Shown here: positions 1-64,000 of the stretch, piece after piece
How positions within the stretch are numbered: the first letter of the stretch is position 1
How the letters are laid out: every line of letters starts with the position of its first letter
Assembly: GCA_021432655.1 (NCBI GenBank)
Contig: MU271238.1
Coordinates: 62,001-126,000 of the forward strand
Length of the DNA: 64,000 nt
Source of the DNA: Atractiella rhizophila
Lineage: Eukaryota
Reading direction: 5' to 3'
Translations under genes and position numbers: made by a program
The notes under the pieces: model-generated
Seen by the model: the letters and a program-made list of their open reading frames with translations, nothing else
Told to the model about the DNA's origin: nothing
The model's database searches: none

Positions 1-844
1 TCACCCTACCGCTACCACTGGCAATGAGATGGAAGCTTCTGGGAGTGACGATGCGCAACAGTTTCCGTGGAGGGGATTTCTTGGATTTTCGACGGTGTTA
101 CTAGAATGTTGTTCTATCACATTTCAGTGTGCCCGTGGAGCAGTTGAGCACGTCTAGCGCCTTCTACATTACATCAGCTCGCAGTGGCTGCCCAACGTCG
201 CAGCTAACTATCACGGCGGCACCGTCCTCGAAACCGCTGCTTCCTCGATTGGATGTGACGAATATCGCAGCCCTTTACCACATCCCACATCCGCAAGTTC
301 GTCGACGACGCCGCTACCCTCTGCCCAGGGTGCACCATCCTTGCGGAAGAGTTGGATTGAGAAGAAGTAGATGACGCTCACCCGCCTATCAAGACTTTAG
401 CGGGTCTGCAGTGTGGAACCGCAAGAACAGCTTAGGGCCTCATTGGTGGAGGACTACAGGATGTACCGACGGTTAGAGTTTGATGAAGTTGAAATAAGAG
501 ACGAAGTTACATTTGCAAAGTACACCATCACCGACACATCTCAGCTGACAATTCCGATTCACCGCTTCAACTCCAACCCAACGTTAACCCCGCCGACAAT
601 ATTTTCAAGCGACGGCGACTTTCAATTTGCAAGGCGCCATCGCTCATTTACAGACTCTGGTGCGCCTGCATTAAGCAATGCACGCACTCTTTCCCTGTAG
701 ACTAGGGTCGAACGAGATGGATTTTGCTCCTACATCCTTTGCTTCATCGACATGTATTTCAATAAATCTCTCGTCTGTTCTGTCGTTAACCAATCGAGTA
801 ATACTCTGCTCTGTGTAACATCTCAGCAGGTTCGCGCAGCATTA

Positions 845-9647: not shown

Positions 9648-10307
9648 GTTATTTTTGAGAGAAGAGGGCCTAGCCACTAAAGGAGATATACGTCCTTCTT
9701 ATAAGTGAACTCGTCGTTGCTGGCTTTTAGGCGGCTTGAAGGCCTTGAAGCGGGCTGCAGCCTCATGGACAATCAAGTTTCCAAACCTGAACAGAATGAC
9801 AACTTGCTTACTATTCAATGCAACGGCTCCACCTCGCGGCACAATGAGCGGTTTTTAGGCGGAGCTCGCATGAAGAGCGGTCTTGCAGCTTGAAGCTCCA
9901 GTCGTTCTGGTTTCAAGGCGAGACTGACTCAAGGGTGCCAAAGAACCTGGATTACACACTCGGATAACACGGTGTAAATGGAGAAGAGTTATTGCAGATT
10001 TTTGAGGATGTTGACCGTTTCGGACCGAGGTCGACTTATGCGTACCTTGGACTGTTCTGTGCGTCCTCTATCGTGTTTATTAACTTAATCAGATATGAGA
10101 TAATACCCTTCAGGAGGGAATGAGAGAGGACGGAAGGAGTTACCGAATCTTCATGGAATCGACAACGATCGCAGAGCTGTACTGTAATATTCGATGTTTG
10201 TGAACACGTCGGGCAGATATGTAGGTACAAGTACGAGTACCGTAATATTAGGAAATCAAGTATATCGGTCTGAGTCAAACAACTCAATGAACATTAGGTG
10301 AAGACGT

Positions 10308-10315
10308 TATAAAAA
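10308..10315 (+). promoter_or_regulatory. Putative TATA box of the methyltransferase gene
   Basis: TATAAAAA about 50 nt upstream of the ATG at 10366, followed by a CT-rich tract. Confidence 0.4.
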
Positions 10316-10365
10316 CATCACCTCCTTTCTTTGTGCTCTGGCCAACGCTTGACCAACGCTTGAAC

Positions 10366-11384
10366 ATGGAGCAAATACGCGAGCAATTCCACAAGCCTGA
10401 GATTGGCAAAGATTATCGCAAGATCGAACATGCCCTCGTCGTTCCCGGTATCCAACTTCTGGATCAGAGCGGTCTGCGCTCTCGCCCTCTACCGCCCGCT
10501 GATGGACTCAAGATTCTCGATAATGCTTGTGGGACCGGAGTCATCACAAGCCTGATTAAGGTTGAGGACAAGTTCAAAGATGTGGAAGTGACTGCCGTCG
10601 ATATCAGTGAGTTGATGGTCGACAGTACGAAGAAGCGAGTTCAAGAGGAGAACTGGAAGAATGTGAATACTGTCATTGGGGATGCAATGGTGGGCTCTAT
10701 CGTAATATCATGATGATTGTCTTGTTGAACTGTGATAGGACCTCAAACTCCCTTCAAACTATTTCTCCCACACCATCACCAACTTCTGCTTTCAAATGCT
10801 CACAGATCCCGCAAAAGGGATGCAAGGCGAGTCTCATTTGGACTTGATTGTGAGAGTCTGACATTGGTTGCTTTCATGGTTATCTAGAAGCTGTCCGGGT
10901 CACCAAACCGGGAGGCGTGATTGGGTTCACCACGATGAAGACAATCGGATGGTATGTCATTGATTTGGTCAAAGAGATCACATTAGAATGAATTGTCAGG
11001 TTCCCCACAGCCAAAGAAGCTGTGTCTCGACTACCGGGGCCACCAGTGTTGCACGATCCCAATGTACTGGCCAACGCTACAGGTCAATGGGATTCGCCTG
11101 AGTACATCTCTAACGTCTTGAAGTCGCCACCTCTCTCTCTCGAAGACGTCAAGGTCCAACTGTTCCCATTCAATGTGGAGATGCAGAGTGCACATGAGCA
11201 TGCACACGAGACTGAGATGATCACAAAGTTCATAACAATGGCCTGGTCGGAGGAGCAGAAGAAGGAATTGACGGAAAGGTTGAAGGAAACTCTGGAACAA
11301 GTGCTCATTGAAAAGTACGGGAAGGATACACCATACCAGTTGGAATTTGTGGCTGTGGTGTGCACCGGAAAGAAACCCTTTTGA
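10366..11384 (+). CDS. Class I SAM-dependent methyltransferase (Methyltransf_25/UbiE-like), paralogue 1; 4 exons
   Basis: Motif I ILDNACGTG, motif II VTAVDISELMV, GDAM/DLKLPSNYFSH, EAVRVTKPGGVIG. Confidence 0.9.
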
Positions 11385-17564: not shown

Positions 17565-19563
17565 CTAATGTCCGAGTGTGACTGAAGTTGGGTGGCGGCA
17601 TTCAGCCTTGAAAAGGTTCATATTAGGCCAATGAGTAGCCTGGAAGCAAGGAGCGTACTTCTCAGCTTCCTCCTGCTGCTCCAGCAGAACAGAAAGTTGC
17701 TCATTGACAATGAGCTCCCTTTTTGCACGGGTAATTGCCTACAGGGTATAATTGAGTTTGTTCCTGGTTGCGAAAAATTCCACTCACAACATATAAGCAA
17801 TTCATTTCTTGTTTCCAAGACTCCACGTCACTTTGTGGTTCAGAGAAAACGGCGAGGAAGTCGTCGGCGATAGCTACTCGATCGTACTCACTACGATCAA
17901 TGTCGATGAGGGACATGATTGACAAAAGAAAGGAGCAACGAACCTCCCTCTCGACTCGTGCGCAGTGAGCAAGGTCAGCTCTGCCTTCTCCGGGAATCGG
18001 CAATGCAGCTCTTCTACGCGTGTCAGATTGTGCAACAAAGCCTCTTGAGACTCTTCCGACTCCATCGCTGCCTGAAATGTCGACTCCATGGAATAAACGA
18101 TGGCAGCCTTTACATGTTCTGAGCTGAGTTACAAACATATGAGAAGGCGTACGAGTGCATGCACCGCTTCTCCAGTCACCTCTTGCACTTCTTCCCGCAG
18201 CTGGTCCCAAGTATCGTACCCTTGCAAGGCGCTGTGGGGTTTAGGCCGTTCGTCACCACAGAAGAGGGAGAAGCCGTCCCGCAGGAGATGACCTGGGTTT
18301 CCTGTGCTGATATAATAACGTCGCGGATTGTCCGACAGGGCTTCAGTAAGAACAGCGTCAATTATGGCTGTAAACAAGCACGTAAGTCCATTGTGCTCTG
18401 AAAAAGAAAAGACGAACCCTTGTTCGTCCTAAAGATCATAGTCAACTTTCCCTCTGGCAACTGTTCCTTCAGCGGCCGTCGTTTCGTTAAGACAAAATCA
18501 GTCATATTTGCCGACCCTCTTAGCTTCTCTTCCTCCCCCTTACAATTGAGAATTGCATTAGCGACGTTTGCGATAGAATCCTGAAAGCGGAATGATTGGG
18601 TGAGTGTGAAGGTTTGACGAGCTTCAAGCGTCTCCCATACATCTTTGGCGCCGCGAAAACCGTAGATAGATTGGTGGGGATCTCCAACGAGAACGATTTG
18701 CGGTCGGAAACGGGAAGTAAGTTGGGTGGAAAATAAGCGCCAATCCACATCGCTCAAATCTAGCGTTCAAACAGTAAGCTTTGGCTGTGGTCTGAGAGAT
18801 GGAACTGCAAGCTGAGAAGAATCAGCGAACCTTGTGCCTCGTCTAATAAGATCATGTCATATTTCAATTCGACGGAGGGAGATTTCATGCTCGCGAGTTT
18901 GAGGTACGCGTTATGAGGTAATGGAGCGTTTAGGTCCGTCATGTCACGAACACGATTCCAAGCCGTCGTCAACCCTGTTAACAGCTCTGCGTCGTCTATG
19001 TCCTCCTTCCCTTCACCCCCCGGCGGATTGTAGATGTGCCTCCATGTCGGCTCGTCATCCGCACTAGCTAGAAACATATTGAGGCTTTTGAGAACCCGTT
19101 GAGCTTTAGCCATGTTGGAGTGTGGGAAAGGAAGTCCGTGTTCGATGTACCACCGTGCACTATCATCGTTGATATCCATTTCCCAATGTAGAAGATCCAT
19201 AATGTGTCTGTAATTGAGCATCCTTGCCAACTTGAACTTCTTGAACGCTGAGGGATTTTGGAATACGACAGCACGAAAAGCGATGGAATTGAAAGTTCGG
19301 CACTTTACTTGAGGCATAGAACTAAATCGTCGCTCTCCATCTCTCCGCAAAGCTTTATTAAAGCAGGCGTAAAGGATTCGAATAGCTGGGTTCGCAACAA
19401 TCGCGTTCCGTGCGAGTTCGACGAGCGTCGTTGTCTTCCCCGTTCCAGCAAAAGCCTTGATTTTGACAATGGTTCCCGGAACGAGATTGTAACGCGAAGC
19501 CACCTCTTGCTCTAGCGTCATTGGCAAGTTGGAAGAGCAAGACGGTGCCGTATGCGGAGGCAT
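17565..19563 (-). CDS. SF1 UvrD-family DNA helicase, FBH1-like; no F-box seen; multi-exon
   Basis: Motif 0/I MTLEQ...VKIKAFAGTGKTTTL; Ia LYACFNK; RTFNSIA; II ILLDEAQD (spliced); III VGDPHQSIYGFRGA; IV LTQSFRF; IFRTN; V TAHESRGSEYDRV (spliced); VI QEMNCLYVAITRAK. Stop at 17565-17567. Confidence 0.9.
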
Positions 19564-20870
19564 ACGACTCTGGAATTATGGCCAGCACGTTGCTGCGAGC
19601 AGTTTTCTGTAAATCTGGGGTAATAGGTGTGGCAAGACTCACAAAGTGACTAGCTACAGCGTGATATAAGTATTAAGCGCGCGATTTCGAGTGTGAAGTT
19701 GTCTGAAGCAGAAGTTGCTGAAGCTCAATGGTCGGCTTTTCCTCTAGAGTCAGATGCCGCCTTTATTGCCGCTGAAAGGTGGGTTCGAGTTCGTGATCGC
19801 CGTCAAGCTGGATGAAGGATAGTATTTGGAGTATACCTTTGCGTCAGACGCGTAAATGCATGCAATGGGGAACATCAAAAACGTTTGGTCACATTCAATA
19901 AACGCACATGTCTCTCCCACACCTATGAGTCAACCATTCAATTTCCTTACTTCGCTACAGTTCTGATCATCCTTTCTAAGGGATTTCCTAGGGGTTTTAT
20001 TTCACGCAGAACTGCCAGCCTTTGTAGTCAAGATTTTTGGCAACAGATTGCCTTTTTTCAAATCATCTACCTTAATATGGCCACGAATTCCAACTCCTAT
20101 GGCTTGACCTTGCCGTATATCTCAATCAGCATGTGGTCGACACCTTCCTTCATCCCTTTTCTGTCCGTCCGTCTAAAGGATTTGATGATATTGATTTTAG
20201 GTGTTTTGTACGCATGGCTCCAAGTTGGCTACGAACATTGTGCACAAATGTGACTTGTTCACGCGAGGCGTGCTCATGTAGTGCAACAATTCTAGTACCC
20301 CCATGGTTGACAGAACCATGAGTGCGCCGATCTCGTCAGTCGGAAGCTTGGGCACGCAAATAGCAGCGTGTGAATTTGTGGAAGGGAAGGAGAAGGACCA
20401 TTAATTTATCATCTGCACATACACAGGGAAGGGTCGCATGCCTCTGTCCATCCATGGTTTGCTTTTGCGACAGTCAACGCCTTGGTCTGATAATCAATCC
20501 TCAAAAGGCAAGCGTCGCACGAGAGGCTTCTCCATATCGTGATTCCAGCCCTTATCTTGCTCCCTGTTATGAGATTCTTCGCATTGGCGAATTGCCTTTA
20601 CCCTGAGAAGGCGGAATCTGACATTGTTGTGAGATACTGTGCTGTCTGCTTGTTGAGTCCACGAATGTCTAGATATGATGTTTCTTGGATGCCTTTCCTT
20701 CCGCTCGAATGTTAATCATAAAGACGATTATATTTATTGTCAGACTGCATGCGTTCAACTTATTACCTCCTGCCTATGTTCCCCGCTCTTGCTCTTAAGT
20801 CTCCTTCCACGCTTGCATCCAAAAATAGGATCAACACACTGAAACTGATAATATTTCTTTCAATTTACAG

Positions 20871-21577
20871 TGTCAATCCCCAGTGGCAAAATTCACAGGT
20901 GCACGCGGAGCAAGCAGGAATAGGTATGGCCGACGGTTGGTCGTCCTTATCCTCCTTTCCCTCTCCTCCTCACCTTGATCCGCAACGAGACAGGCATCCT
21001 CTCTCTCCTCCATAATGCTACAGTTCTACATCTCGGTCTGTTCAGGAATGAGAATACGCTTGATCCAGTGGAATATAATAAACTCCCAAAGAAGGTGGTC
21101 GCAGATGAAGACTTTGTGCAACCGTCCCCTTTTCGCTTCTTTACCCTTCACCTGACTTGGCGTGCGACGTAGATCCAAAGTCTGCCGCTGCTAGTGGGCA
21201 TTCGCAGCCGTCCACATGCTTGTGCATTACCTTCCTATCTCAGGCTACATCTTGTCATCAGGTGGTGCTTGGCATGCAATGCGAAACAGCAAGATTGGGG
21301 TATACTTGTAGAGAACATCCTCTGCCTCGTCGCCTCGTCGCCTCGTTCCCAGGCCTCCAAAAGATCACGCGAGCCTTTCCCGACCTGGAGATCTGAACTG
21401 CAGCCATCGATCAAGACGTGCGTCCCTCCCCTACCATGTCTCCATGCCATATCCCTGGAATACCTTTTATTGATGTTGAATTGGGGTGGTGCAGCTTACG
21501 AAGGAAGGTATGATCTCCCCTGGACTAGGTGTCGGTGGAGATCGCCTCTTTGGCACGGGCAGCTATGCGCAGTCATG
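20871..21577 (+). pseudogene. Truncated uracil phosphoribosyltransferase pseudogene
   Basis: Homologous to the exons of 50588..52418 from exon 3 onward. It lacks exons 1-2, has a 29-nt deletion removing the HPILR motif, a degraded DPIVATGG loop and TGG->TGA at 21394-21396. Confidence 0.9.
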
Positions 21578-22159
21578 ATTCTTCATCCTTCCTTTCGGCT
21601 TTCAGCTTTGTCTGAGAATGGAGTGGGTAAAGCTGCCAGCAGAAGCACTGCCGAGGCAGATGGTGAAGCGGCTGTGTTCTTAGATTCCCTCAGTTGTAAT
21701 CTGTTTCTCTCTTCGGCACGCCGTTTTTTTCATGACTGGAGACTTGCAACAATCCACGGCAAGTCTGGACAGAGGCATGTGCCCTGTTATCACCACCACT
21801 GGCAGTTCACATTCAAGTTGGTTCAAGCTGTGCTATAGTACGTTGATGGGGTGGGGATGATCGATCGTTCAACCAAACTTGATCGAGCTTGATCTTCCTT
21901 CCCAGAGGTGACCGGTGAAGGCTGGTAAAAAGTGGATCGCGGGGTGGTGAAAACACTTAGCAGAGGTCCAGGAAAAAGCGCTAAAGCATGACAATTGAGA
22001 GGAGTGACATTTATCAGCAAAAAAAAGTCGTCATTGTGAGAATACTCCTACTTCTGAGACAGTTACACGATATCAATACACCCAGTTAGAGAAATCATAC
22101 AATCATATCGGTTCGTTACATTCGTTGAAGCATGGGCTCAATGAAACACAATCACAACA

Positions 22160-24396
22160 TCACAATCCTCGCTGCGTCGCAGTCGGCGGAGCTGTATAAA
22201 TTTCGGGATATCTGGACGGGTACGGATTTCCCCCATAGCCCTCGCGGGACTGCTGGTATTCCAAGGCTGGCGTCACGCTCAGCTGGTGCCTATTCGTCAT
22301 ATCGGTGACCTGCAAAGCGTTCACCTGTCCCATCGTGAAAGGTTGGAAGAATTGCTCCTGATCCCCTTTTTCGTACGAATGCGAAACATCCGACGTTTGA
22401 TAAAGTGTCGATGACCTATCGCTAATGGGTACACTTATGGGAGAAGAAATGGACTCTCTGTTTGGCGGTTCGCTCGGTGGCGTTCTAGCACGTCTGTAGC
22501 GACGGCGTAGGCAGAATGCGAGAAGGAGGATGAGGATGAGTGCCACAGCCCCACCAACCGCGCATCCCACGATTAAACCGACGTGTGAGGGGGGGTGGCA
22601 ATTGCCTTGACAAAGATAATCGCTAGGGGTGTAGCTTCCCCCACTGTTGGGGGCCGTTCCGTCCGTGCCAGGAAGGCCAGAACCGGCCAGAGAGCCAGAG
22701 TTGGGCTGGATAGCCTGAGCGAAACCGATATAGTGCTCATTGTTGGGGTTGAAAGAGTAGGCGGTGTACCAGTTCTTCAGGAAGCCGGCACCAAGAAGTG
22801 CCATGGGAGTACGATCGGTGTCTTGAGCCTGTCACCCACCCAGAACAAAAAGGATTAGTGAATAAACTGGACAACGAAGGCGGGAGACATACGTCCGTGG
22901 TGTAAATGAAAAAGCTACATAAATCGCTATTGTTTTTGTAGAAGATATCGAGAGGAGCTATGTCTACTTAACCGTGTAAACATCGTTCCCCAAGAAACAA
23001 TGGGAAAGGGAAAAACTACCGTATACCTGCCCGAAAATATCGAATCCCAGCCGCATCGTCGCCAAGTTTGCACAGGTCGTCGTAATCTGGTATGCAGGTC
23101 CCCCATTTCCGACAGCCTCGATCTGGGCCCCAATCCCTTGTGCGTAGGCTTGGATGACAGACGGTGGGAGAGCCAGGTCATATCCGGCGGCAAGGAGAGC
23201 CCTACACTTCGTCCCGTCAATCGTTCGACCCTTGTAGGTCAAACCAGAGGTATCCACAGCCCAGTACGAATGGCTCGTCACTGGCACCCACTTCAAATCT
23301 CCTCGGTAATGCTGTAAGTTACTGCAACCGATACAGATTTCTCCACCATCTGAATTGCTATCATCGAAGGTACCGCTCGAGTCGGTGTTGACGATTGTGT
23401 TCTTGATCGTATAATCTCGTGCCAAGAAGATCGAAAAGTAGTTCTGATCGAGTGTCCCTCCGTTTCCAGCGACGAGATTCTCCATGAACGTAGTTTGGTT
23501 ATTCTGTGCTTGCACGAATCCAAGCCCAATGATTCCATCCCCCACCTGCTGCTCAAAAATTGTCGTCGTGTGGTTGGCAAGGCCGAAGCCACTATTAGGG
23601 ATGGTGAATCCGGCGATGGTGAGTGTATCTTGCGCTACGAATCCGTCGGTTGTGTACCCTTTCAGGTTTTAGGAATGCATCAGAAAGGGGAACTGCGGAA
23701 ATGCAGCAGACACACCTTCACCATAGCTTATGTTCCTGAATGCAGAAGAATTAGAGCGACTGGATGAGGGTGAAGATTGAGGAGACGAACCAAGGGATTT
23801 GGGAACCGACAAAAGTGGAAGAAGCTGATGGTTGGAATTTACGATGGGCAGTGGTCTATACAGTATGCCAAACTTGTTTGTCCTCCGCCGTAGGAGCAAA
23901 AAGCAACGCACGTTAGCAGTCGGGTCATCTGGGAATTCATCAGCTGCTTAGAGAACCATGGGCCAAACTGAACTCACAAACCCACAGATCAGATGATACA
24001 GCTTCCCGCACTTGAGTATGTTTTTACGGTGAAGGAGGAACGTACTGTCAAACTGGAGGCGAGGCATCGCATCAGTGCCGCTTGAAGGTGATGCAGGAGG
24101 AACTCAAACCTGGACAAGAAAGCTTTGAGGTGGTGTACCAAGCTCCACCGTTCCAGCGTAGATTCTGTCAAGTGGTGGGCCTGTTTGCAGTCATCAGAGG
24201 CTGTGCTTGCATGAAAATATCAATCTTTTGCCATACCATTGGTCGAAGGCACCGTTCCGGAAGCCCTCTTCCATGCTCTCTTTCCCTGCTGCTCAGGCCT
24301 GATTCTCTCTGAACTCTGACGCCTGCCGGTCAATGCGATAGTATTGAGTGCAGAAGTCACCTCCAATCCTGCTAGTAGGTAGAACAAGTTCTTCAT
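22160..24396 (-). CDS. Type I membrane pepsin-fold (A1) protein, predicted catalytically inactive; copy A
   Basis: Signal MKNLFYLLAGLEVTSA; YAGTVELGTPPQSFLVQFDTVSSDLWV; flap ISYGEG; DGIIGLGF; second motif CRALLAAGYDL; LGAGFLKNWYTAYSF; TM GLIVGCAVGGAVALILILLLAFCL followed by RRRYRR and a long tail. Confidence 0.88.
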
Positions 24397-25785
24397 GAAG
24401 AAAAATTCAATATCCAAGGAGTTGGTGATGCGTCGTTAACGTGTTGCTGGCGGCTTCGATTGTCGCAGACAGAGGTTTTAAAGGTTTCTGTGATTCCACG
24501 AACAGAAAGACGATTATGCCAAGTTAAATATTGGATTGCATGGTCCCTGTAAGTTGAAATGAATGTGAAGTAGATGGGGGTATGGATGTTTTCCTCTACC
24601 CACACATAACCCAAGCTCCCGTCCTCCAAGAGAAGCCATCTAGGCCTTTAATCGTGAAAACAACAAAACTCATCTCGAAGATGGATGGTATTGATCTGGG
24701 TGCTCTGCAATCATTTCACCCTGCCATTCAAATTAACATTCATCCCGTCAGCGAAGGCGGGGATCCTGCATAAACGCGGCCGATGGGTTTTGAAGGTTGC
24801 TTGAACCTCGAACGCTGAACATCCACAGTTCGAATCAAGATCACATTCCGATTCCTTGAATTCACTGTTTCCCGCAGAGAGAAAGAAAGGACAAGGCTAA
24901 AGTCGAACTTGAAATCGACGCTGGGCGGCAAGGGATGCTGACGGCGATACTTTGAACGCTTTGAGCATGAGAAGGGAATATCGTAACGTTGTGCCTTTAA
25001 ATTAACATCGATGCATGTTCCGAAGAATCGTTTGACATGCAGTTGTCTCGGAGTCTCTGGCTTGGCATCACTCCAATTCCAGGTTTTTAGAGAATTATGC
25101 ACATAGATCATTATGAGGCTCGTACGTCTACGTGCGGAGAAGGCTTCGACAAACCGTGGCGATTTCAAGCAGGGGTAGCGGGAATTTCCTATTTTGGAAA
25201 TTTGGGTGTTGAAACTAATTTGAACATTGCAAGCTAACAAACTGCAGTTTTCTACACCAACTAAAGCCGCAAGCTGTTGCCCTTTGCCTCTCCCTTGCAT
25301 ACGGCGCATACGTTAAAGGTGCAAGGTAGGTTATTGGCCTAACGGGAGGTTAAGTCGTTCAATGACGACCCATTCGAGATTGCGATAATGACAGTACGGC
25401 GACGCATCGAGGTCATGACCTGTGTTTAGCTCCTGGTTTTTTTTGAGCCTAAAGATAAAACAAGCACATCTGCTCAACTAGCCCGTGTGCTATCCAAAAC
25501 GTGCTTGCTCCTGATGCACCATATCTTTCGATGTGTTCTCACAGTATTCTGTTGCAGAAGAGACAAATAACATACCTAAATTCTCAAATCCATTTTGACA
25601 ATTCTTCCCCCGATCTCTTGCAGGGAATTTTCCAGCGCTCAAGCCCGGACGACGTCCAACGCTTTTCGCGTATGCGACTCAGTTCTCTAAAAAGCGGGCG
25701 ATAATGCGATCAGAATTTCTCTGGTAGACTTGATATCTGTCCGAGGGGTATTGCTATGGTGGTGCATAGGTCTATACAATTTATC

Positions 25786-26804
25786 TTAATTTGCAGCTGG
25801 TTTCCTTCCAGTACAAATGACAGCGACAAAGTCGAGCTCGAATGGCGAGTCACTCCCGTGCCACTCGACTAGCACTTGCTCAAGGGTTTCCTTCAGCTTT
25901 TCTTTCAATTCTTTCTTCTGTTCTTCAGACCAAGCCATGGTCATCAAGTTGATGAGCATCGGTTGCTCATACGCAAATGTGTGAGCGCTATCCACCTTGA
26001 CCTTGCACGGGTAGAGCTCGACTTGGACGTCTTCAAGAGATAGAGGCGGCGACTGTACAAGTTGGGATATGTATTCAGGTGAATACCAGTCCCCAGTCCT
26101 GACCGAAGGCCTGGTGGGGTCTTGAATTGCTGGTGGCCCAGGGAGACGAGATATTGCTTCGTTCGCCGGTGGAAACCTGTCAAGCCGTCCATAATCCAGA
26201 TCGGTTTAATTGAAAAGTAACGAGAACGGACCACCCAAGGCTATTCCACGTTGTGAATCCAATGACTCCTCCTGGCTTTGTCACTCGTATTGCCTCTACA
26301 ACTCAAGTGAGGTCAATCAAGTAGACATTGATTTGAGGTTGCAAACCCTGTATAGCTTTCAAAGGTTCCGGAACCATCATGAAGCAGAAGTTGGTTAATG
26401 TGTGAGAAAAGGTGTTGGAAGGAAGTTTGAGATCCTGCCAGATTGTTAGAGAGGAAGAATTAGAAGTACTGGTAATAGCGCACCATTGCGTTAGCAATCT
26501 TCGTCGATACATTGTTCCAGCCCTCCTCTTTGATTCTCCCCTCAAGGATGTAAAGCATTGCCTCGCTGATGTCGGTTGCAGTGATTTCGACATTTTCGAA
26601 GGGCTTTTCATTCTTGATCAGCGCGGTGATGACTCCAGTCCCACATCCATTGTCCAAAATGTTGAGCCCTTCGGAAGGCAGGGACTGGGAGAAAACGCCG
26701 CTTTTCTCCAGAAGGCGCCTTCCGGGAATGGATGTGCCTCGCTCGAACTCGCGATATTGCTGGGCAACTTCAGAATTATGAAACTGGTCTGAAAGCTTTT
26801 GCAT
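25786..26804 (-). CDS. Class I SAM-dependent methyltransferase, paralogue 2; 4 exons
   Basis: ILDNGCGTG, ITATDISEAML, DLKLPSNTFSHTLTNFCF, RVTKPGGVIG. The segment MAWSEEQKKEL..LKETLEQVL is shared with 10366..11384. Confidence 0.9.
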
Positions 26805-27914
26805 GATGGTACGCTTTTTCAACTGGAGTGGCTGAAATCTCACGTCGTGTCGTGGGAAGGACTACGGTTCTCTCCATCCTTTTATTGGAACTGTCATACA
26901 CAGGCCGCATAACTCGGCTAGGACCAACACCAGATAGAATGTTCTTTTCTGTTGTACAGTGTCACCATTGAAATATTGAACATTACCTTCTATCCTGAAG
27001 CTATTGTCGACGAGCTGACTTGAACGTCCAGGCATATCTAGAAGTCTATCCGTGCAAAATTAAGTGTATCCGTCAGGAAAGGCTCTGTCAATAAAGGTCT
27101 GGGATCGGTAGAAACGCAGCAATTGACAGCGAAACTGCAGTGCTCGCATCAACAAAATCTCGTCTGATGGCAGTCTGTTAAATTTCAACCTATTATCCTG
27201 AATGAAGTCCTCATTGCAAGCTCAGATGATCGAACACAGCATAGAAGGCATATGCAGAAGCCACGGCAGATGCTGACAAAGGTGTGAGTTGATTGGATTC
27301 TATCCATCCAACTGAGACATCGCAACTGATAAATGGAGATCCACTGAATTTCTAACAGCTTGCTCCTCGAATCTCAGTGCGCTTCTTCAGGAGAGGTTTG
27401 TTGGATGTTGACCATACGACGAAGGTACTCGTGGGGGGTTGGGGGGAAACGAATTTAGAGTCAGATATTTTTCCTAGAAGAATGATATAATGCGTTGCTC
27501 GAACCCCCAATATTGTGAGTGACTATGGTGATGGGAAACTGGTCTGACAGCTGCTGGATACTTTCCAAAGAGAGCCGCTAACTTGGCTCAAACAGACCAG
27601 CTAAGGAATTGCACTTTTCAGGTTTGTTGCCACCATCTTTTGTAACTTACAAGCTGAATATGAACGTAGGGCATGTTGAGGGTCTAGATATGACCACTCC
27701 GGATGAGCCCTAGTCTGGCTGCGACTCAGTATTTAATCCTTGTACTTTGAAGCTTCTACAAGCAGTGACTAAGAAACCTCTCTGTAAGAGTCAGAGGATG
27801 AGTGTACCGTTGATCCATGCCAGCCAGTTTTGACAATGGCGTGTTCGGGTACTAATCCGTTTCGTGCCTGTGTTGCTGGAAGAATGAATGCAGCATTCAT
27901 TGAAGCATCAGATG

Positions 27915-29601: not shown

Positions 29602-30437
29602 TCTTGACAATCTTTCGATTGACAGTCCAGCGCTTTGCAACTGGCAACTGTGGGACTAATTGCTTCTGGTGGCGTTGGGATGGTAGATTAAACCTGAAGC
29701 TCCAGCGGAGGCCGGAGATGATTAAATGACAGGATTTGGTGCAAGTCATAGAGCTTAAAACCTTGTAGTGAGCAACAGACATGTGTGATAGGTGTCAGAA
29801 CGTGGAAGAAAGTCCGCCATCAGGCAAGTCACAGCGCCGACAACACGACAACATTAAGACCGTCACCGTGACTGCCCCCACCCTCCGAAAGCTGGTGAAG
29901 AGGGGTTACCCAGGTGGAAAGTTAGGGTTATGGAGCACAAGGTCCTTCATTATGAGTGATAAAATATTAAACACAAACTGGAAAGACAACACTGGAATAT
30001 CTTCAGGACTCTCAAATCTATTTTTTCTTCGGTGCTTCCTCCTCATAAGGAGTCTCATCCCACCTGCAAATGCGTGTGGAGTGTCGAGGATAGAAGTGAG
30101 GAGTGAAGGCTCTTCTACCTGGCTGTGGGCTACCTCCTGAGTCTCTCTCGCCCCTTCCTGCACAATGACAATCACCCTCGTCGTTCGCCTTCTCCCTCTT
30201 TCTCGCATACCTGGGACAGTTCAGGTCCTCCGGTCTTGGTGGACAACAACCCGGTCCTTTCCCACCTTCCCACCCTCGCTCACGCTGGGTTGTATAACAC
30301 GCACCAAACCACTCCCTAAGCTACGCACTACTTCTGGGCTCCCTCCGTGAGGAGTTCATGCGTGCCTTCCTTCCACTATTTCTTCTGCTACGTTCGTTAA
30401 CCTGCTTTCGTACCCTCTTCTGCGTCGGTTTCGGTCA

Positions 30438-30441
30438 NNNN
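30438..30441. other. Assembly gap (NNNN) truncating the WDR70 3' end
   Basis: Four N bases; the WDR70-like reading stops at the gap. Confidence 0.95.
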
Positions 30442-50587: not shown

Positions 50588-52418
50588 ATGGCGTCCATTC
50601 CCTCAACCGCAGATCCAAGCACAATAACCCTCTCCTCCCTCGACAAGCTGCACATCCTCACCCACCCCATCCTCCAAGTCAGTCCCCTGCTCCTTACGCC
50701 CCACGTAACATAACATGATATTCACGCTGCGCTTCGTGCGCGTCGTGCGCTTTGGTGTGCCAGGAAAAGATGACGCTCATCCGATCGGCGGGCACGCGCG
50801 CGCCTGAGTTTAGACAGCTCGTCAAGGACGTCGCGCAGATCATTGGGTATGAAGCGGCGAGGGAGATGGAGGTCGAACAGCTGCCTGATGTGTGTCTTTT
50901 GTTTCTTCTTCTTTTACCGGTTTAGGGTGTGATACGGTTTTCGTTATGCGTATCTGTTCGATCGTGAGGCGTATTGCATCGTGGAGATGGCTGTTGCTTT
51001 GCTAGCATATCGATTAAAGAGGTCACGTATTGCTCCTCGAACAGTTGTCTCATAGAGCAGACAATTGCATCCAGGTCAAAAGTAGGAGATATCATTCGCG
51101 CATGCAAACAAAACAAACCAACCAGAGCCAGCCTCGGGCTCCAGATAGGCTCCAAACATGGCGGTAAATATACCTTGTTCGGCGCGAAACATGCTCATGT
51201 GGTGTAATACTTCTACCACCCCATGGTTGACATCGTTCGCCTATTGCATCTGTTGGAATCTTAAAACCATCAATTGCTCGCTAACAGCAGCGTATGAATT
51301 TGTGAAGGGAAGAATAAGGATCATTAATTTATCATCTGCACATACACAGTGAAGTGTTGCGTCTCTATATCCGTCCATGGTTTGCTTTCGCGACAGTCAA
51401 CGCTTTTGGTCTGATAATCGATCTTTCAATAGGCAAGCACACGAGCGACTTTTCCATATCGTGCTTGCAGCCCTTATCTTGAGACGTGTCATCGCATCTG
51501 CACTCTGTTTCCTGAGAGGGCGGAATCTACATTGTTGTGAGATGCTATGCTGTCTATTACCTCCCGCCTATGTTTCGCGCTCTTGTTCTCCTTCCACATC
51601 AGCATCCAAAAATAGGACCAACGCACTGAAACTGATGATATTTCTTCAAATTTACAGTGTCAATCCCCAGTTGCAAAATTCACAGGTGCACGCGTAGCAA
51701 GCCGGATCGGACTGCATCCCATCCTGCGCGCAGGAATCGGCATGACCGACGGTTCGTCCTCCTCATCGCCCTTTCTCTCTCCTCCTCTCCTTGATGCGCA
51801 ACGAGACAGGCATCCTCTCCCTCTTCCCTAATGCTACTGTTCTCCATCTCGGTCTGTTCAGGAACGAGAACACGCTTGATCCGGTAGAATATTATAATAA
51901 ACTCCCAAAGACGGTGATCGTAGATGAAGTCTTTGTACCTCCCTCCTCCCTTTTTCGCTTCTGTACCCGTTATCTTGTATTGACATGACGTGAGATGTAG
52001 ATCCTAGATCCCATTGTCGCTACTGGTGGCACAGCAATCGCAGCCGTCCACATGCTTGTGCGTTATCTTCCTATCGCAGACTATATACCTTATCATGACG
52101 CGCTGACTTGGCATGCGATACGAAACAGCAAGATTGGGGTATACCCGTAGAGAACATCAAGCTCCTCTGCCTCGTCGCCTCCTTCCCCGGCCTCCAAAAG
52201 GTCATGCGCGCCTTTCCCGAACTGGAGATCTGGACCGCAGCCGTCGACCAAGAAGTGCGTCCTCACCCTTCCATCTCTCCCTCCATGCTCCATCCCTAGA
52301 ATACCTTTTATTGATGTTGGATTGGGTGGTGCAGCTTACGAAGGAAGGTATGATCTCCCCCGGACTAGGCGACAGCGGAGATCGCCTCTTTGGGACGGGC
52401 AGCTATGCGCAGTCGTGA
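50588..52418 (+). CDS. FUR1: Uracil phosphoribosyltransferase (Upp-type), intact copy; multi-exon with a 768-nt second intron
   Basis: LHILTHPILQEKMTLIRS...EFRQLV; HPILRAGIGM; HLGLFRNENTLDPVEYYNKLP; ILDPIVATGGTA (PRPP loop); MISPGLGDSGDRLFGT. Confidence 0.9.
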
Positions 52419-55400
52419 TTCTTCTACCTCCCTCTCAGCTTTCACTCAGCTTTGTTTGAGGATGGGGAATGAGGAATGGGTGAAGCCTCCAGCAGAAGCA
52501 TTGGCGAGACAGATGGTGAAGTGGTTGTGTTCTTAGATTCGCTCTGTTGTAATTTATTTTCTCTTCGCACATGGTTTTTCATGACTGGAGACTTGCAATA
52601 ATCGACACGAGTGTGTCAGTGGCATGTGCCCTGTTGTCACCACACTCACTTGAGATTCACGTTCACGTTGTTTCAAAGCTATACTCAAAATTCCATAGTA
52701 AGTTTTTGATGGGGATTGTCGTTCATCCAGCCACACTTGAGCCTCCTTCTGAGGTGAAGGCTAGTAAAAAGTGGACCGCAGAGGTGATGGAAACAGCAGA
52801 GGTCTAGGAGAAAGCGCTAAACATGATGGTGAGGAGGAGGACATTTGTCAGCAAAAAAAATCATCATTGTGAGAATACTCCTACTTCTGAGACTGTTACA
52901 TGATATCAGTACACCCAGTTAGAGAAATCATGCAGTCATGGCCGTTCGTTACATTAGTCGAGGAATGGGCTGAAAGGAAACACAAATCACAACAATCATG
53001 GTCCTTGCTGGTTCGCTGTCGGCGGGGCTGAATAAATCTCGGGATATCTGGACGGGTACGGATTTCCCCCATAGCCCTCGCGAGACTGCTGGTATCCGAA
53101 AGCTGGCGTCACACTCAGCTGGTGCCTATTCGTCATATCGGTGACCTGCAAAGCGTTCATTTGTCCCATCGTGAAAGGTTGGAAGAATTGCTCCTGATCC
53201 CCTTTTTCGTACGAATGCGAAACATCCGACGTTTGATAAAGTGTCGATGACCTGTCGCTAATGGGTACGCCCATGGGAGAAGAGATGGACTCTCTGTTTG
53301 GCGGTTCGCTCGGTGGCGGTCCAGCACGTTTGTAGCGACGGCGTAGGCAGAACGCGAGAAGGAGGATGAGGATGAGTGCCACAGCCCCACCAACCGCGCA
53401 TCCCACGATTAAGCCGATGTGTGAGCTACCATGGTGGTGGCAAGTGCCTTGACAAGGATCATCGGTGGGGGTGTAGCTTCCCCCACTGATGGCGGCCGTT
53501 CCGTCCGTGCCAGGAAGGCCAGAACCAGCCAGAGAGCCAGAGTTGGGTTGGATAGCTTGAGCGAAACCAATAGAATGCGCTTTGTTGGCGTCAAAAGAGT
53601 AGGCGGTGTACCAGTTCTTCAGGAAGCCAGCACCAAGAACGGCCATGGGAGTACCATCGGTGTCTTGAGCCTGTCACCCACCCAGCACCACAAAGGATTA
53701 GTGAATAAACTGGACAGCGAAGGCGGGAGACATACGTCCGTGCTGTAAACGAAAAAGCTGCACGAGTCGCTATTGTTTTTGTAAAAGAGATCGAGAGGAG
53801 CTATGTCTACTTAACCGTGTAAACATCGTTCCCCAAGAAGCAATAGGCAGGGAAAAAACCCACCGTACACCTGCCCGAAAATATCGAATCCCAGCCGCAT
53901 CGTCGCCATGTTTGCACAGGTCGTAGTAACCTGGTATGCAGGTCCCCCACTTCCGATAGTCTGAATCTGGGCCCCAATCCCTTGTGCGTAGGCTTGGAGG
54001 ACGGACGGTGGGAGAGCCAGGTCATATCCTGCGGCAAGGAGAGCCCTACACTTCGTTCCGTCAATCGTTCGACCCTTGTAGGTCAAACCAGAGGTATCCA
54101 CAGCCCAGTACGAATCGCTCGTCACCGGTACCCACTTCAAATTTCCTCGGTAATGCTGTAAGTTACTGCAACCGATACAGATTTCTCCACCATCTGAATT
54201 GCTATCATCGAAGGTACCGCTCGAGTCGGTGTTGGCGATTGTGTTCTGGATCGTATAATCTCGTGCGAAGAAGATCGAAAAGTAGTTGTGATCGAGCGTC
54301 CCTCCGTTTCCAGCGACGAGATTCTCCATGAACGAAGTTTGATTGCTCTGTGCTTGCGCGAACCCAAACCCAATGATCCCATCCCCCACCTGCTGCTCAA
54401 AGTTTATCGTCGTGTGGTTGGCAAGGCCGAAGCCGGTATTAGGGATGGTGAATCCAGCGATGGTCAGTGTATCTTGGGCTACGAATCCGTCCGTTGTGTA
54501 CCCTTTCAGGTTTCAGGAAATGCATCAGAAAGGGGAAAGGTGGAAATCCAACGGACACACCGTCACCATAGCTTATGTTCCTAAATGCAGAAGAATTAGA
54601 GTGACTGAATGAAGGTGAAGGATGAGCAGACGAACCAAGGGATTTGGGAACCGACAAAAGTGGAAGAAGCTGACGGTTGGAATTTATGATGGGCAGTGGT
54701 CTACACAGTATGCCAAACTTGTTTGTCCTCCGCCGTAGGAGCAAAAGCAAACGCACGTTAGCAGTCGGGTCATCTAGGAATTCATCAGCTCCTTAGAGAA
54801 CCATGGGCCAAACTGAACTCACAAACCCACAGATCAGATGATACAGCTTCCCGCACTTGAGTACGTTTTTACCGCGGAAGAGGGGACGTACTGTCAAACT
54901 GGAGGCGAGGCATCGCATCAGTGCCGCTTGAAGGTGATGCAGGAGGAACTCAAACCTGGACAAGAAAGCTTTGAGGTGGTGTACCAAGCTGCACCGTTCC
55001 AGCGTAGATTCTGTCAAGTGGAGGGCCTGTTTGCAATCATTAGAAGCTGTGCTTGCATGAAAACGTCTTCAATCTTTGACATACCATTGGTCGCAGGCAC
55101 CGTTCCGGAAGCTCTCTTCCATGCTCTCTTCCCCTGCTGCTCAGACCAGATCCTCTCTGAACTCTTACGCCTGCTGGTCAATGAGATAGTATTGAGCGCA
55201 GCAGCCACCTCCAATCCTGCTAGGAGGTAGAACAAGTTTTTCATGACGAATAATTAATATCCACAAGAGTTGATGGAGTGCCGTTGCTGGCAGGTTCAGG
55301 GGGGGAATATTGGCACAAACAGGCTTTTGAAGGTCTCTGTGATTCCACGAACGGAGAGATAGCTGTGCCAAGTTAAAAGTTGGAGTGCATACATTCTGTG

Positions 55401-63128: not shown

Positions 63129-64000
63129 GGGAACATGTTGACTTCAAGTATGTGCCTGCTCCATTGTTTTTCCAGCGGTTCCCTTTCTTTTAGCATAGCC
63201 AGACCTTTTCTCCCTCCAAACTACTGTATAACTTTCGCACTAGCAAACAGCTTGACAACTGCCACTTTTCTAAAGGATCTACAACTGGACTTATGTTGAT
63301 TTTATGTTGAATGAACACGCGAAGTGGCAGAAGGATTAGAGTTTTAAATGTAGTCCGGTTTTGAGCCCTCCGCACTCCTGAAATTTACCAGTGCTAACTG
63401 AAAACTTATTGTCGAAGGAATGTTTCGCAGCATGACTTTTCGGGTCCCAATCCTCTCCACGTCACACTGCACGAGCATCAGACGGCTGACTCAAAACCGT
63501 ACCACTTCTGAGACCGGCGTTGAACAGCCTGTAAAGGAAATTGAGGTCGAGAAGCTGTCTGAGGAAATGTAGGCGTTCAATAGCGTAAATACCAGCCAGT
63601 CGCTAACTCCTTATAGGAAGCATGCAAATGCGGACGACAAGGAATCACCGCGCAAGTCTTCCCGGGGATGTAGGCCATTTCGCGATATCCTTCCTGACAA
63701 TCGTTCTGAGGCGTTGTCGTCTAGTAACGATTCAACGTCGCAATGAGCTGATGTCTCAGGGAACATGTTGACTTCAAGTATGTGCCTGCTCCATTGTTTT
63801 TCCAGCGGTTCCCTTTCTTTTAGCATAGCCAGACCTTTTCTCCCTCCAAACTACTGTATAACTTTCGCACTAGCAAACAGCTTGACAACTGCCACTTTTC
63901 TAAAGGATCTACAACTGGACTTATGTTGATTTTATGTTGAATGAACACGCGAAGTGGCAGAAGGATTAGAGTTTTAAATGTAGTCCGGTTTTGAGCCCTC
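63129..64000. repeat. Exact direct repeat of at least 242 bp (63129-63370 and 63759-64000, offset 630); the second copy runs off the window
   Basis: gggaacatgttgacttcaag...ttttgagccctc is identical at both positions. Confidence 0.95.

Follow-up and report, generated by a model that had tools for sequence, protein, structure and literature searches.

What becomes of a pepsin-type protein once it can no longer cut? Peptidases of the A1 family need both of their catalytic aspartate residues, and the question is raised by a duplicated gene in a 64,000-nucleotide (nt) stretch of the genome of the fungus Atractiella rhizophila (assembly GCA_021432655.1, contig MU271238.1, contig positions 62,001-126,000, forward strand), hereafter called the window, from whose first base all coordinates are counted. 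Two copies of the gene lie on its minus strand, copy A at 22160..24396, coding for 580 amino acids (aa) in the model supported by RNA, and copy B at 52996..55244, coding for 582 aa; on another contig lies a third paralogue, P0003, whose intact open reading frame (ORF) codes for 574 aa. An initial annotation, made from the letters of the window, had described a membrane-anchored pepsin-fold pseudoprotease with a conserved cytoplasmic tail, a candidate receptor or sensor. Its observation was confirmed in every checkable detail and its interpretation is partly supported: the part that stands is a protein that is anchored, expressed, constrained and, judged from its residues, very probably non-catalytic, for which peptide binding and signalling by the tail are candidate roles. 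We favour, with a probability of roughly 60%, a broad reading of these three proteins (the trio) as a non-cleaving binding module on the membrane, with a tail directing sorting and perhaps signalling, because the protein is expressed and purifying selection has preserved its fold, its flap and the framework of its cleft.

A pepsin fold without its second catalytic aspartate

The Pfam profile Asp (PF00026) matches the three paralogues almost from end to end (profile positions 2-314 of 315, with E-values of 3.5e-53, 1.8e-55 and 6.6e-53), and the AlphaFold2 model, built on a 150-sequence alignment, has a predicted local distance difference test score (pLDDT) mostly above 90 over residues 56-400. 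Compared with Foldseek, the model resembles renin, pepsin, cardosin and the Cryptococcus peptidase May1 at TM-scores of 0.80-0.86, normalised to the target, the best matches being renin and pepsin (0.86, E 1e-28). By profile and by model, the trio are A1 family (PF00026) homologues with what is predicted to be a complete bilobal pepsin fold, in an ectodomain that takes up residues ~56-397 (approximately 23004..24231 in copy A, minus strand, introns included).

HMMER alignments to the solved structures of gastricsin (1avf), May1 (6r61) and renin (5mkt) are ungapped at both catalytic motifs. At the first, FDTVSSDLWV aligns to FDTGSSNLWV in 3/3 paralogues, with D79 kept and the glycine replaced by Val81, whose codon lies at 23997..23999 (minus strand) according to the codon map and the alignment. 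At the second, CRALLAAGYDL stands opposite CQAIVDTGTSL in gastricsin with no gap, which places A278 on the second catalytic Asp; the residues A278-A279-G280-Y281-D282, encoded at 23177..23191 (minus strand), replace D-T-G-T-S. The positions given initially for the Asp-to-Ala codon, 23189-23191 in copy A and 54033-54035 in copy B, are exact, and Asp282 falls on the Ser position of the motif. How unusual these motifs are can be gauged from the 150 best homologues drawn from a library of 1.84 billion representatives. At the first site, 108/150 of them read DTG and 111/150 either DTG or DSG; at the second, DTG or DSG is found in 131/150, and AAG in the three proteins of the trio only. Neither motif of the trio is that of an active A1 peptidase.

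The flap, by contrast with these motifs, is of the active type. Tyr119, at the position of pepsin Tyr75 (codon 23723..23725, minus strand, inside a 20-nt exon), stands in ISY119GEG and aligns with the tyrosine of the Y-G-S/T-G flap motif, as the initial annotation had read it. Just before it lies an N-I-S glycosylation sequon, absent from P0004 and P0005, the DTG-type paralogues of the same genome. Compared with these two proteins, the trio also has GAGF for the late motif GDAF, with loss of the G-D aspartate, a tyrosine as the residue following the flap Y-G-x-G, and insertions of five and two residues in a surface loop.

A cleft is probably still formed, since the trio retains the first Asp (D79), the tyrosine of the flap, the tryptophan of DLWV and the glycines of the core. 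Peptide-bond hydrolysis by this ectodomain, judged from its residues, is very unlikely, because to the change of Asp to Ala are added three further active-site changes (Gly to Val, Thr to Ala and the late G-D Asp to Ala), which look like a released constraint on catalysis. The rule that A1 peptidases require both Asp residues, which the initial annotation had treated as established, is also stated by Kay et al. (2011; PMC3116508).

Membrane anchor and probable cytoplasmic tail

The N-terminus, MKNLFYLLAGLEVTSA, is a plausible, putative short signal peptide. Two KR sites (KRAWKR) are conserved in 3/3 paralogues and align with the end of the May1 prosegment. The pepsin domain is followed by a Gly/Ser/Pro-rich stalk of 43 residues, flexible in the model at 404-451 (model positions from here on in copy-B numbering), and then by a transmembrane (TM) segment at residues 441-465, VGLIVGCAVGGAVALILILLLAFCL, encoded at 22508..22582 (minus strand). 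Its Kyte-Doolittle hydropathy peaks at 2.93 in the 19-residue window 443-461, and AlphaFold2 models a helix at 452-472, so that hydropathy and model both agree with the TM helix of the initial annotation. Because a positive cluster, RRRYRR, follows the hydrophobic helix, we infer a type I topology in which the tail is cytoplasmic.

This tail (residues 466-580, encoded at 22163..22507, minus strand) begins with RRRYRR and is made up to 48% of S+T+P+Y+Q; it contains one PxxP motif (at 476), a Ser-rich run and one YxxPhi motif, YPEI (at 565), 12-16 residues before the end. That it is conserved and rich in Ser, Pro and Tyr had been seen correctly, whereas the length of about 110 aa and the ending NPYPSRYPEIY first given to it have to be revised: the tail has 115 aa, and the protein stops ~10 residues beyond this string (...TAPPTATQRGL). 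In the model the tail is disordered, with pLDDT <50 at 474-582. Across the three paralogues, the invariant columns amount to 24/25 in the TM segment, 99/115 in the tail, 279/342 in the pepsin domain, 26/45 in the stalk and 31/55 in the region of the signal and prosegment.

Fungi possess single-pass surface sensors of the Wsc, Mid2 and Msb2 type, to which the likeness of the trio is architectural only. Fungal sensor domains (WSC, SKG6-like) gave no Pfam match at E up to 0.1, and we do not assign the trio to that type of sensor. The Pfam matches below the cut-off were weak ones to TM_ErbB1 and Adeno_E3_CR2, and the best score of residues 440-582 in the ESM Atlas, 0.81, is below the meaningful level.

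Gene structure and transcription

Copy A extends on the minus strand from an ATG at 24396 to a stop codon at 22160, exactly the bounds initially annotated. RNA joints divide it into 10 exons (24396-24237, 24180-24110, 24052-24046, 24001-23978, 23928-23912, 23855-23791, 23735-23716, 23658-23020, 22963-22893 and 22828-22160), separated by 9 introns of 44-64 nt, each GT..AG. The RNA-library contigs over 22100-24500 contain nine joints with CT..AC ends, equivalent to GT..AG on the minus strand (joint coordinates are used after the one-base shifts flagged for contig joints). The exons of copy B, also on the minus strand and projected from copy A, are 55244-55085, 55026-54956, 54898-54892, 54846-54823, 54773-54757, 54700-54636, 54580-54561, 54502-53864, 53806-53736 and 53670-52996; its introns are GT..AG in 9/9 cases too, and its translation is identical to the public protein P0002. 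The intact ORFs and splice sites reported for both copies are therefore real, and spliced contigs bridge all nine joints.

Three exons are micro-exons of 7, 17 and 20 nt, located on the minus strand at 24046-24052, 23912-23928 and 23716-23735 in copy A and at 54892-54898, 54757-54773 and 54561-54580 in copy B, and supported by spliced RNA contigs. The smallest, TTTGACA (24046..24052), supplies the codons of F78 and D79 and the opening base of that of T80; the retained first catalytic Asp, D79, is at the position of pepsin Asp32. X1 and X2 RNA contigs join 24110 to 24001 through this exon (TGTCAAA); the spliced message across it reads FDTVSSDLWVYDPTAN and yields FDTVSSDLWV, the splice proposed in the initial annotation. 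As the bridging contigs of both sets carry copy-B bases, the FDT|VSS junction of copy A is presumed from its splice signals, GTACGT..GGGAAG, which are identical to those of copy B; the intron that they enclose measures 44 nt in copy A and 45 nt in copy B.

The last exon of copy A is 100% identical to the public protein P0001 (588 aa, annotated 'acid protease [Atractiella rhizophila]'). P0001 reads FDMREAVSS...SDEFPDDPTAN, which contradicts the RNA: it uses other acceptors, at the introns after the 7-nt exon and before the 17-nt exon, and these add 8 residues. The public models of copy B (P0002) and of the third paralogue (P0003) agree with the RNA. A by-product of this work is thus a correction to the public model of copy A, in which two splice acceptors, beside the 7-nt and 17-nt micro-exons, are wrong.

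At the homologous positions, 34/40 of the listed variant letters in the RNA contigs are the copy-B base. X2 record 15 shows 2, 2 and 16 differences from copy A in its covered segments, where A and B likewise differ by 2, 2 and 16, and X3 record 18 shows 2 and 12, again the numbers that separate A from B; these and like contigs are transcripts of copy B or of a near-identical relative. Three other contigs represent copy A: X14 record 11 matches it perfectly across 151 nt, with introns 6 and 7 spanned and 8 A/B-diagnostic sites included, X3 record 16 does so at 20 diagnostic sites in the tail region, and X1 record 4, which covers 11 diagnostic sites, shows a single difference. Since contigs matching copy A and contigs matching copy B both exist, both window copies are transcribed and spliced. 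No copy-A-specific contig bridging introns 1-5, 8 or 9 is present among the RNA contigs, and in 23882-23962 their coverage is limited to the joined micro-exon. The contigs derive from root and rhizosphere metatranscriptomes, in runs with small query-word shares (0.05-0.11) that bear on neither habitat nor expression level. X3 record 17 (22327-22589) and X14 records 8 and 9 (22305-22587) show fewer differences from copy A than separate it from copy B (5/11, 3/7 and 6/7), and their source may be the third paralogue or a different strain.

Origin of the trio and selection on its genes

The nearest relatives of the trio are P0004 and P0005, partial models annotated 'acid protease, partial [Atractiella rhizophila]', which share 54-57% identity with it over the large exon and keep DTG and DSG. 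When 22 proteins (the 3 copies and 19 others picked from the 150 hits) are placed in a quick maximum-likelihood tree, the trio forms one group, with a support of 100 in the Shimodaira-Hasegawa-like approximate likelihood ratio test (SH-aLRT), and is sister to P0004 plus P0005 (98); a metagenome protein with DTG and DSG branches next (98). The stem of the trio has a length of 0.75 changes per column, that of the sister pair 0.32. Outside Atractiella the nearest family, with 28-38% identity, is that of basidiomycete A1 peptidases such as P0007 (Mixia osmundae G7DVM9), P0009, P0013, P0014 and P0027. They resemble the trio in that a low-complexity stalk follows the pepsin domain, but they have DTG twice, a long Ser/Thr-rich region and a hydrophobic C-terminus with no cytoplasmic tail; this C-terminus looks like a glycosylphosphatidylinositol (GPI) anchor signal.

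Because the trio is sister to DTG/DSG paralogues of A. rhizophila and its distant relatives carry DTG twice, the comparison of sequences indicates that the dead form originated inside the Atractiella lineage, as a descendant of an active-type DTG/DSG surface peptidase, and was then tripled. The evolution of the stem was fast, with constraint and multiplication coming later. As P0004 and P0005 are partial models, they do not fix the order in which the TM segment and tail were gained and the Asp was lost.

Copies A and B differ over 580 codons by 56 synonymous and 66 non-synonymous differences, which correspond (Nei-Gojobori) to a synonymous divergence (dS) of 0.151 and a non-synonymous divergence (dN) of 0.051. 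The resulting dN/dS of 0.34 (bootstrap 95% interval 0.24-0.49; 0/2000 replicates reach 1; binomial p 5e-8) comes from one pairwise comparison, between copies that are young. By region, the ratio is 0.32 in the pepsin domain, 0.66 in the stalk, 0.20 in the TM segment and 0.30 in the tail, where 7/2000 replicates reach 1 (p 0.0055). The A1 gene is under purifying selection. The initial annotation had reached this view from the contrast with a decayed neighbour; the ratio of 0.34, far from 1, now measures it directly. Outside the coding sequence, the divergence between the copies is 0.097 in the introns (Jukes-Cantor), 16% of sites in the 3' flank and 34% in the 5' flank. These 5' flanks, 24397-24541 and 55245-55390, were compared over 145 aligned sites, and as only 7% of sites differ in exons and 9% in introns, copies A and B may be differently regulated.

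The decayed neighbour belongs to the same duplication. Self-BLAST confirms a direct segmental duplication in the same orientation, 20761-24541 versus 51555-55390, with 86.7% identity over 3889 columns, and adds a further block, 20352-20647 versus 51276-51555, with 80% identity; the complete duplicated segments, to which no strand is assigned, are thus 20352..24541 and 51276..55390. On the plus strand, both contain pieces of a UPRTase-like gene that was duplicated along with the A1 gene. Beside copy B (51616..52415), open pieces match UPRTase profile positions 47-206, whereas in the remnant beside copy A (20880..21575) positions 81-119 and 185-206 alone are detectable. The latter has a 29-nt deletion near 20913, within the stretch that matches profile positions 47-90 in B, and two frameshifting 4-nt deletions near 21180-21200, within the stretch of the phosphoribosyl pyrophosphate (PRPP) loop motif. 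The claim that the UPRT gene decayed while the A1 gene did not holds, therefore, for the segment of copy A, and is to be restricted to it in view of the open pieces beside copy B.

Comparison with known inactive and membrane-anchored pepsins

The idea of a dead membrane pepsin acting as a receptor is not new in kind, since Kay et al. (2011, BMC Genomics 12:254, PMC3116508) proposed a peptide-binding surface receptor of this sort for PxAP9 of Phytophthora, a membrane-bound pepsin paralogue. PxAP9 resembles the trio in being predicted inactive, in having a C-terminal extension with one TM segment and an intracellular part without recognisable domain, and in coexisting with an active paralogue in the same genome (PMC3116508). 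It differs in that it keeps both DT/SG motifs, its inactivity being suspected from Tyr75Phe alone, whereas the trio keeps Tyr75 and has lost the second Asp; moreover, it is a BACE-like oomycete protein (Trp39Ala, no propart; PMC3116508), whereas the trio keeps Trp39, has a prosegment with KR sites and is of fungal A1 descent. The trio thus shares with PxAP9 the TM segment and the domainless intracellular extension, and neither the BACE-like hallmarks nor descent, which makes it an analogue of independent origin and not a member of the same group. It is also the cleaner case, with the catalytic Asp gone, DTG-type sisters in the same genome, a loss recent enough to be traced, and three constrained, expressed copies.

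Among relatives of solved structure, May1 of Cryptococcus neoformans (PDB 6r61, 6r5h and 6r6a) is the second best by sequence (E 1.4e-31), with Foldseek TM-scores of 0.83-0.85. Like the trio, it is a basidiomycete A1 protein, and its KR-x-x-KR prosegment end is aligned with theirs; unlike the trio, it has both catalytic Asp residues, with I-D-T-G-T as second motif, and no architecture of TM segment plus tail. May1 is a secreted, active enzyme.

In plants, TAXI-I, EDGP and GIP1 combine the pepsin fold with altered catalytic motifs and are thought to be binders, TAXI-I inhibiting glycoside hydrolases. The portion of PMC5814044 at hand has GIP1 as an abbreviation entry only, without mention of an aspartic fold there. 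Pregnancy-associated glycoproteins and cockroach Bla g 2 are likewise inactive pepsin-fold proteins (PMC3116508). All five differ from the trio in being soluble, without TM segment or tail, and of unrelated origin. The cytoplasmic tails of BACE1 and BACE2, on the other side, carry sorting signals. These two membrane-anchored pepsin-family proteins (PMC3116508) are, like the trio, type I membrane proteins with a cytoplasmic tail, but they are active vertebrate enzymes with short tails, Trp39Ala and a disulphide pattern of their own.

Among the papers listed by the literature searches, none describes an inactive A1 protein anchored in a fungal membrane, which does not prove its absence from print; judged by title and abstract, the papers found on A. 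rhizophila all deal with ecology or taxonomy, and none of those found on pepsin-type aspartic pseudoproteases deals with fungi. The reuse of dead enzymes as binders or receptors is a recurring theme, of which, to our knowledge, membrane-anchored pepsin-family examples are few and none is characterised. The trio offers a workable system for what a non-cutting pepsin cleft does, and it may be a surface molecule that a root endophyte uses where it meets its host.

Possible functions

As a non-cleaving binder on the membrane, the protein would enter the secretory pathway, and its prosegment would be cut off in trans by a Kex2-type protease at the conserved dibasic sites KR-AW-KR. The dead pepsin domain would then be shown at the cell surface on its short flexible stalk, where a peptide or protein would be bound as ligand and left uncleaved, while the disordered 115-aa tail, with its PxxP, Ser-rich run and YPEI, would link the protein to sorting and endocytosis and possibly to signalling. 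It is in this sense that we infer ligand binding, surface location, removal of the prosegment, a role for the tail and the absence of activity. A receptor or sensor is a candidate role within this frame, and a trafficking tail on a surface trap would fit equally well; we regard a true receptor or sensor and a surface trap or decoy as about equally likely, and residual activity, drift towards pseudogenes and regulation of active paralogues as less likely than either.

Several points weigh against a membrane-bound binder. The ligand is a candidate deduced from the features of the protein, and the inactivity is read from a residue rule by itself; the valine at the Gly34 position and the new N-I-S sequon may narrow or cover the cleft, contrary to the binding of a peptide in the classical groove. 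At the N-terminus, the signal peptide is a putative one, judged from the sequence. At the other end, the tail of the three proteins has no Pfam family match, and its YPEI and PxxP motifs are so short that they could occur by chance. Searches with the last exon (223 aa), word-based and of limited sensitivity, returned only the trio among proteins of 392-2000 aa and no match among proteins of 122-391 aa, and metagenome contigs scanned with P0002 and with the trio alignment contained no relative. Orthologues with the same D-to-A change and tail in other species, which the initial annotation had envisaged, were absent from the 150 homologues, the tail searches and the metagenome scans; as the family is found in one species only, a broad biological importance is unproven. 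Since the copies are young (dS 0.15), the 86% of invariant columns in the tail are weak proof alone, the dN/dS interval of the tail is wide (0.14-0.70), and gene conversion between the copies could distort the ratio.

The rival that survives best, possible if somewhat doubtful, is a surface trap, decoy or inhibitor, in which the ectodomain would neutralise a secreted protein of a host or competitor, such as an aspartic-protease inhibitor or a hydrolase, and the tail would serve delivery and turnover only. Inactive pepsin-fold binders and inhibitors exist in plants (TAXI and related proteins), the organism is root-associated and its RNA contigs come from root and rhizosphere metatranscriptomes, copy number is expanding, and the sole tail motif of a known type is the sorting-type YxxPhi. 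The resemblance to the plant proteins is, however, limited: the TAXi_N profile matches over positions 78-141 of 176 (30.7-41.5 bits, cut-off 30) and TAXi_C gives no match in the three proteins at E up to 0.1, so that they do not belong to the TAXI/EDGP type, and their closest relatives are fungal A1 peptidases. A trap would moreover have no obvious need for 115 conserved cytoplasmic residues, and its partner is a candidate only.

The membrane-bound binder may also be drawn in its fullest form, speculative and, with all its parts together, rather unlikely. The trio would be a dead-pepsin surface receptor that captures a plant or microbial peptide in its uncleaving cleft during root colonisation, with a tail relaying occupancy through endocytosis at YPEI or recruitment of an SH3 protein or a kinase, and would constitute a class invented within Atractiella that is expanding by duplication.

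It is improbable that the dead copies act as partners or regulators of the DTG-type paralogues P0004 and P0005, keeping either substrates or the active peptidase itself at the membrane, a role that dead paralogues have in other families of proteases. Active-type and dead paralogues do occur in one genome, as sister groups, but the proposal builds on this coexistence and not on co-expression or interaction, and the partial models of P0004 and P0005 do not allow their anchoring to be read. Slightly harder still to sustain is a recently inactivated family without function that is drifting to pseudogenes. Its restriction to one species in all searches, the youth of the copies and the long stem branch would suit such a drift; against it speak the dN/dS significantly below 1, the three intact ORFs with 9 conserved introns and even exons of 7, 17 and 20 nt, the transcription and splicing of both window copies, and the frameshifts that the adjacent UPRT-like copy gained in the same time. 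Least credible of all is a peptidase still active through an unconventional site, for instance Asp79 plus Asp282 of G-Y-D, since, although the cleft as a whole is retained together with Asp79 and the flap Tyr, and Asp282 lies four residues past the lost Asp, the alignment between the Cys-x-Ala and Leu-Pro anchors is ungapped and puts Asp282, whose place relative to the catalytic centre is known from sequence alignment only, on the Ser of D-T-G-T-S, presumably equivalent to the second, non-catalytic Asp of retropepsin D-T-G-A-D, and the Gly-to-Val, Thr-to-Ala and late G-D Asp-to-Ala changes come on top.

The surrounding window

Elsewhere in the window, a Pfam search of the 53 longest reading frames revealed unrelated genes and no functional cluster, with matches to F-box, GH3, methyltransferase, CPL1-like, UvrD-like helicase, WD40, Na/Ca exchanger, RasGAP and Pam16 families. 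The helicase matches (UvrD/REP and AAA_19) are weak, with E-values of 4.5e-6 to 1e-3, and lie at 18365-19575 on the minus strand, just upstream of the duplicated segment of copy A. Two frames, 10291-10710 (plus strand) and 26463-26861 (minus strand), give the same set of S-adenosylmethionine (SAM) methyltransferase matches (ubiE/COQ5-type, E ~5e-8 each) and may be a further pair of paralogues. An assembly gap of four N occupies 30437-30440. Near its end the window contains a direct repeat of 242 nt with 100% identity, at 63129-63370 and 63759-64000, the second copy of which reaches the window end.

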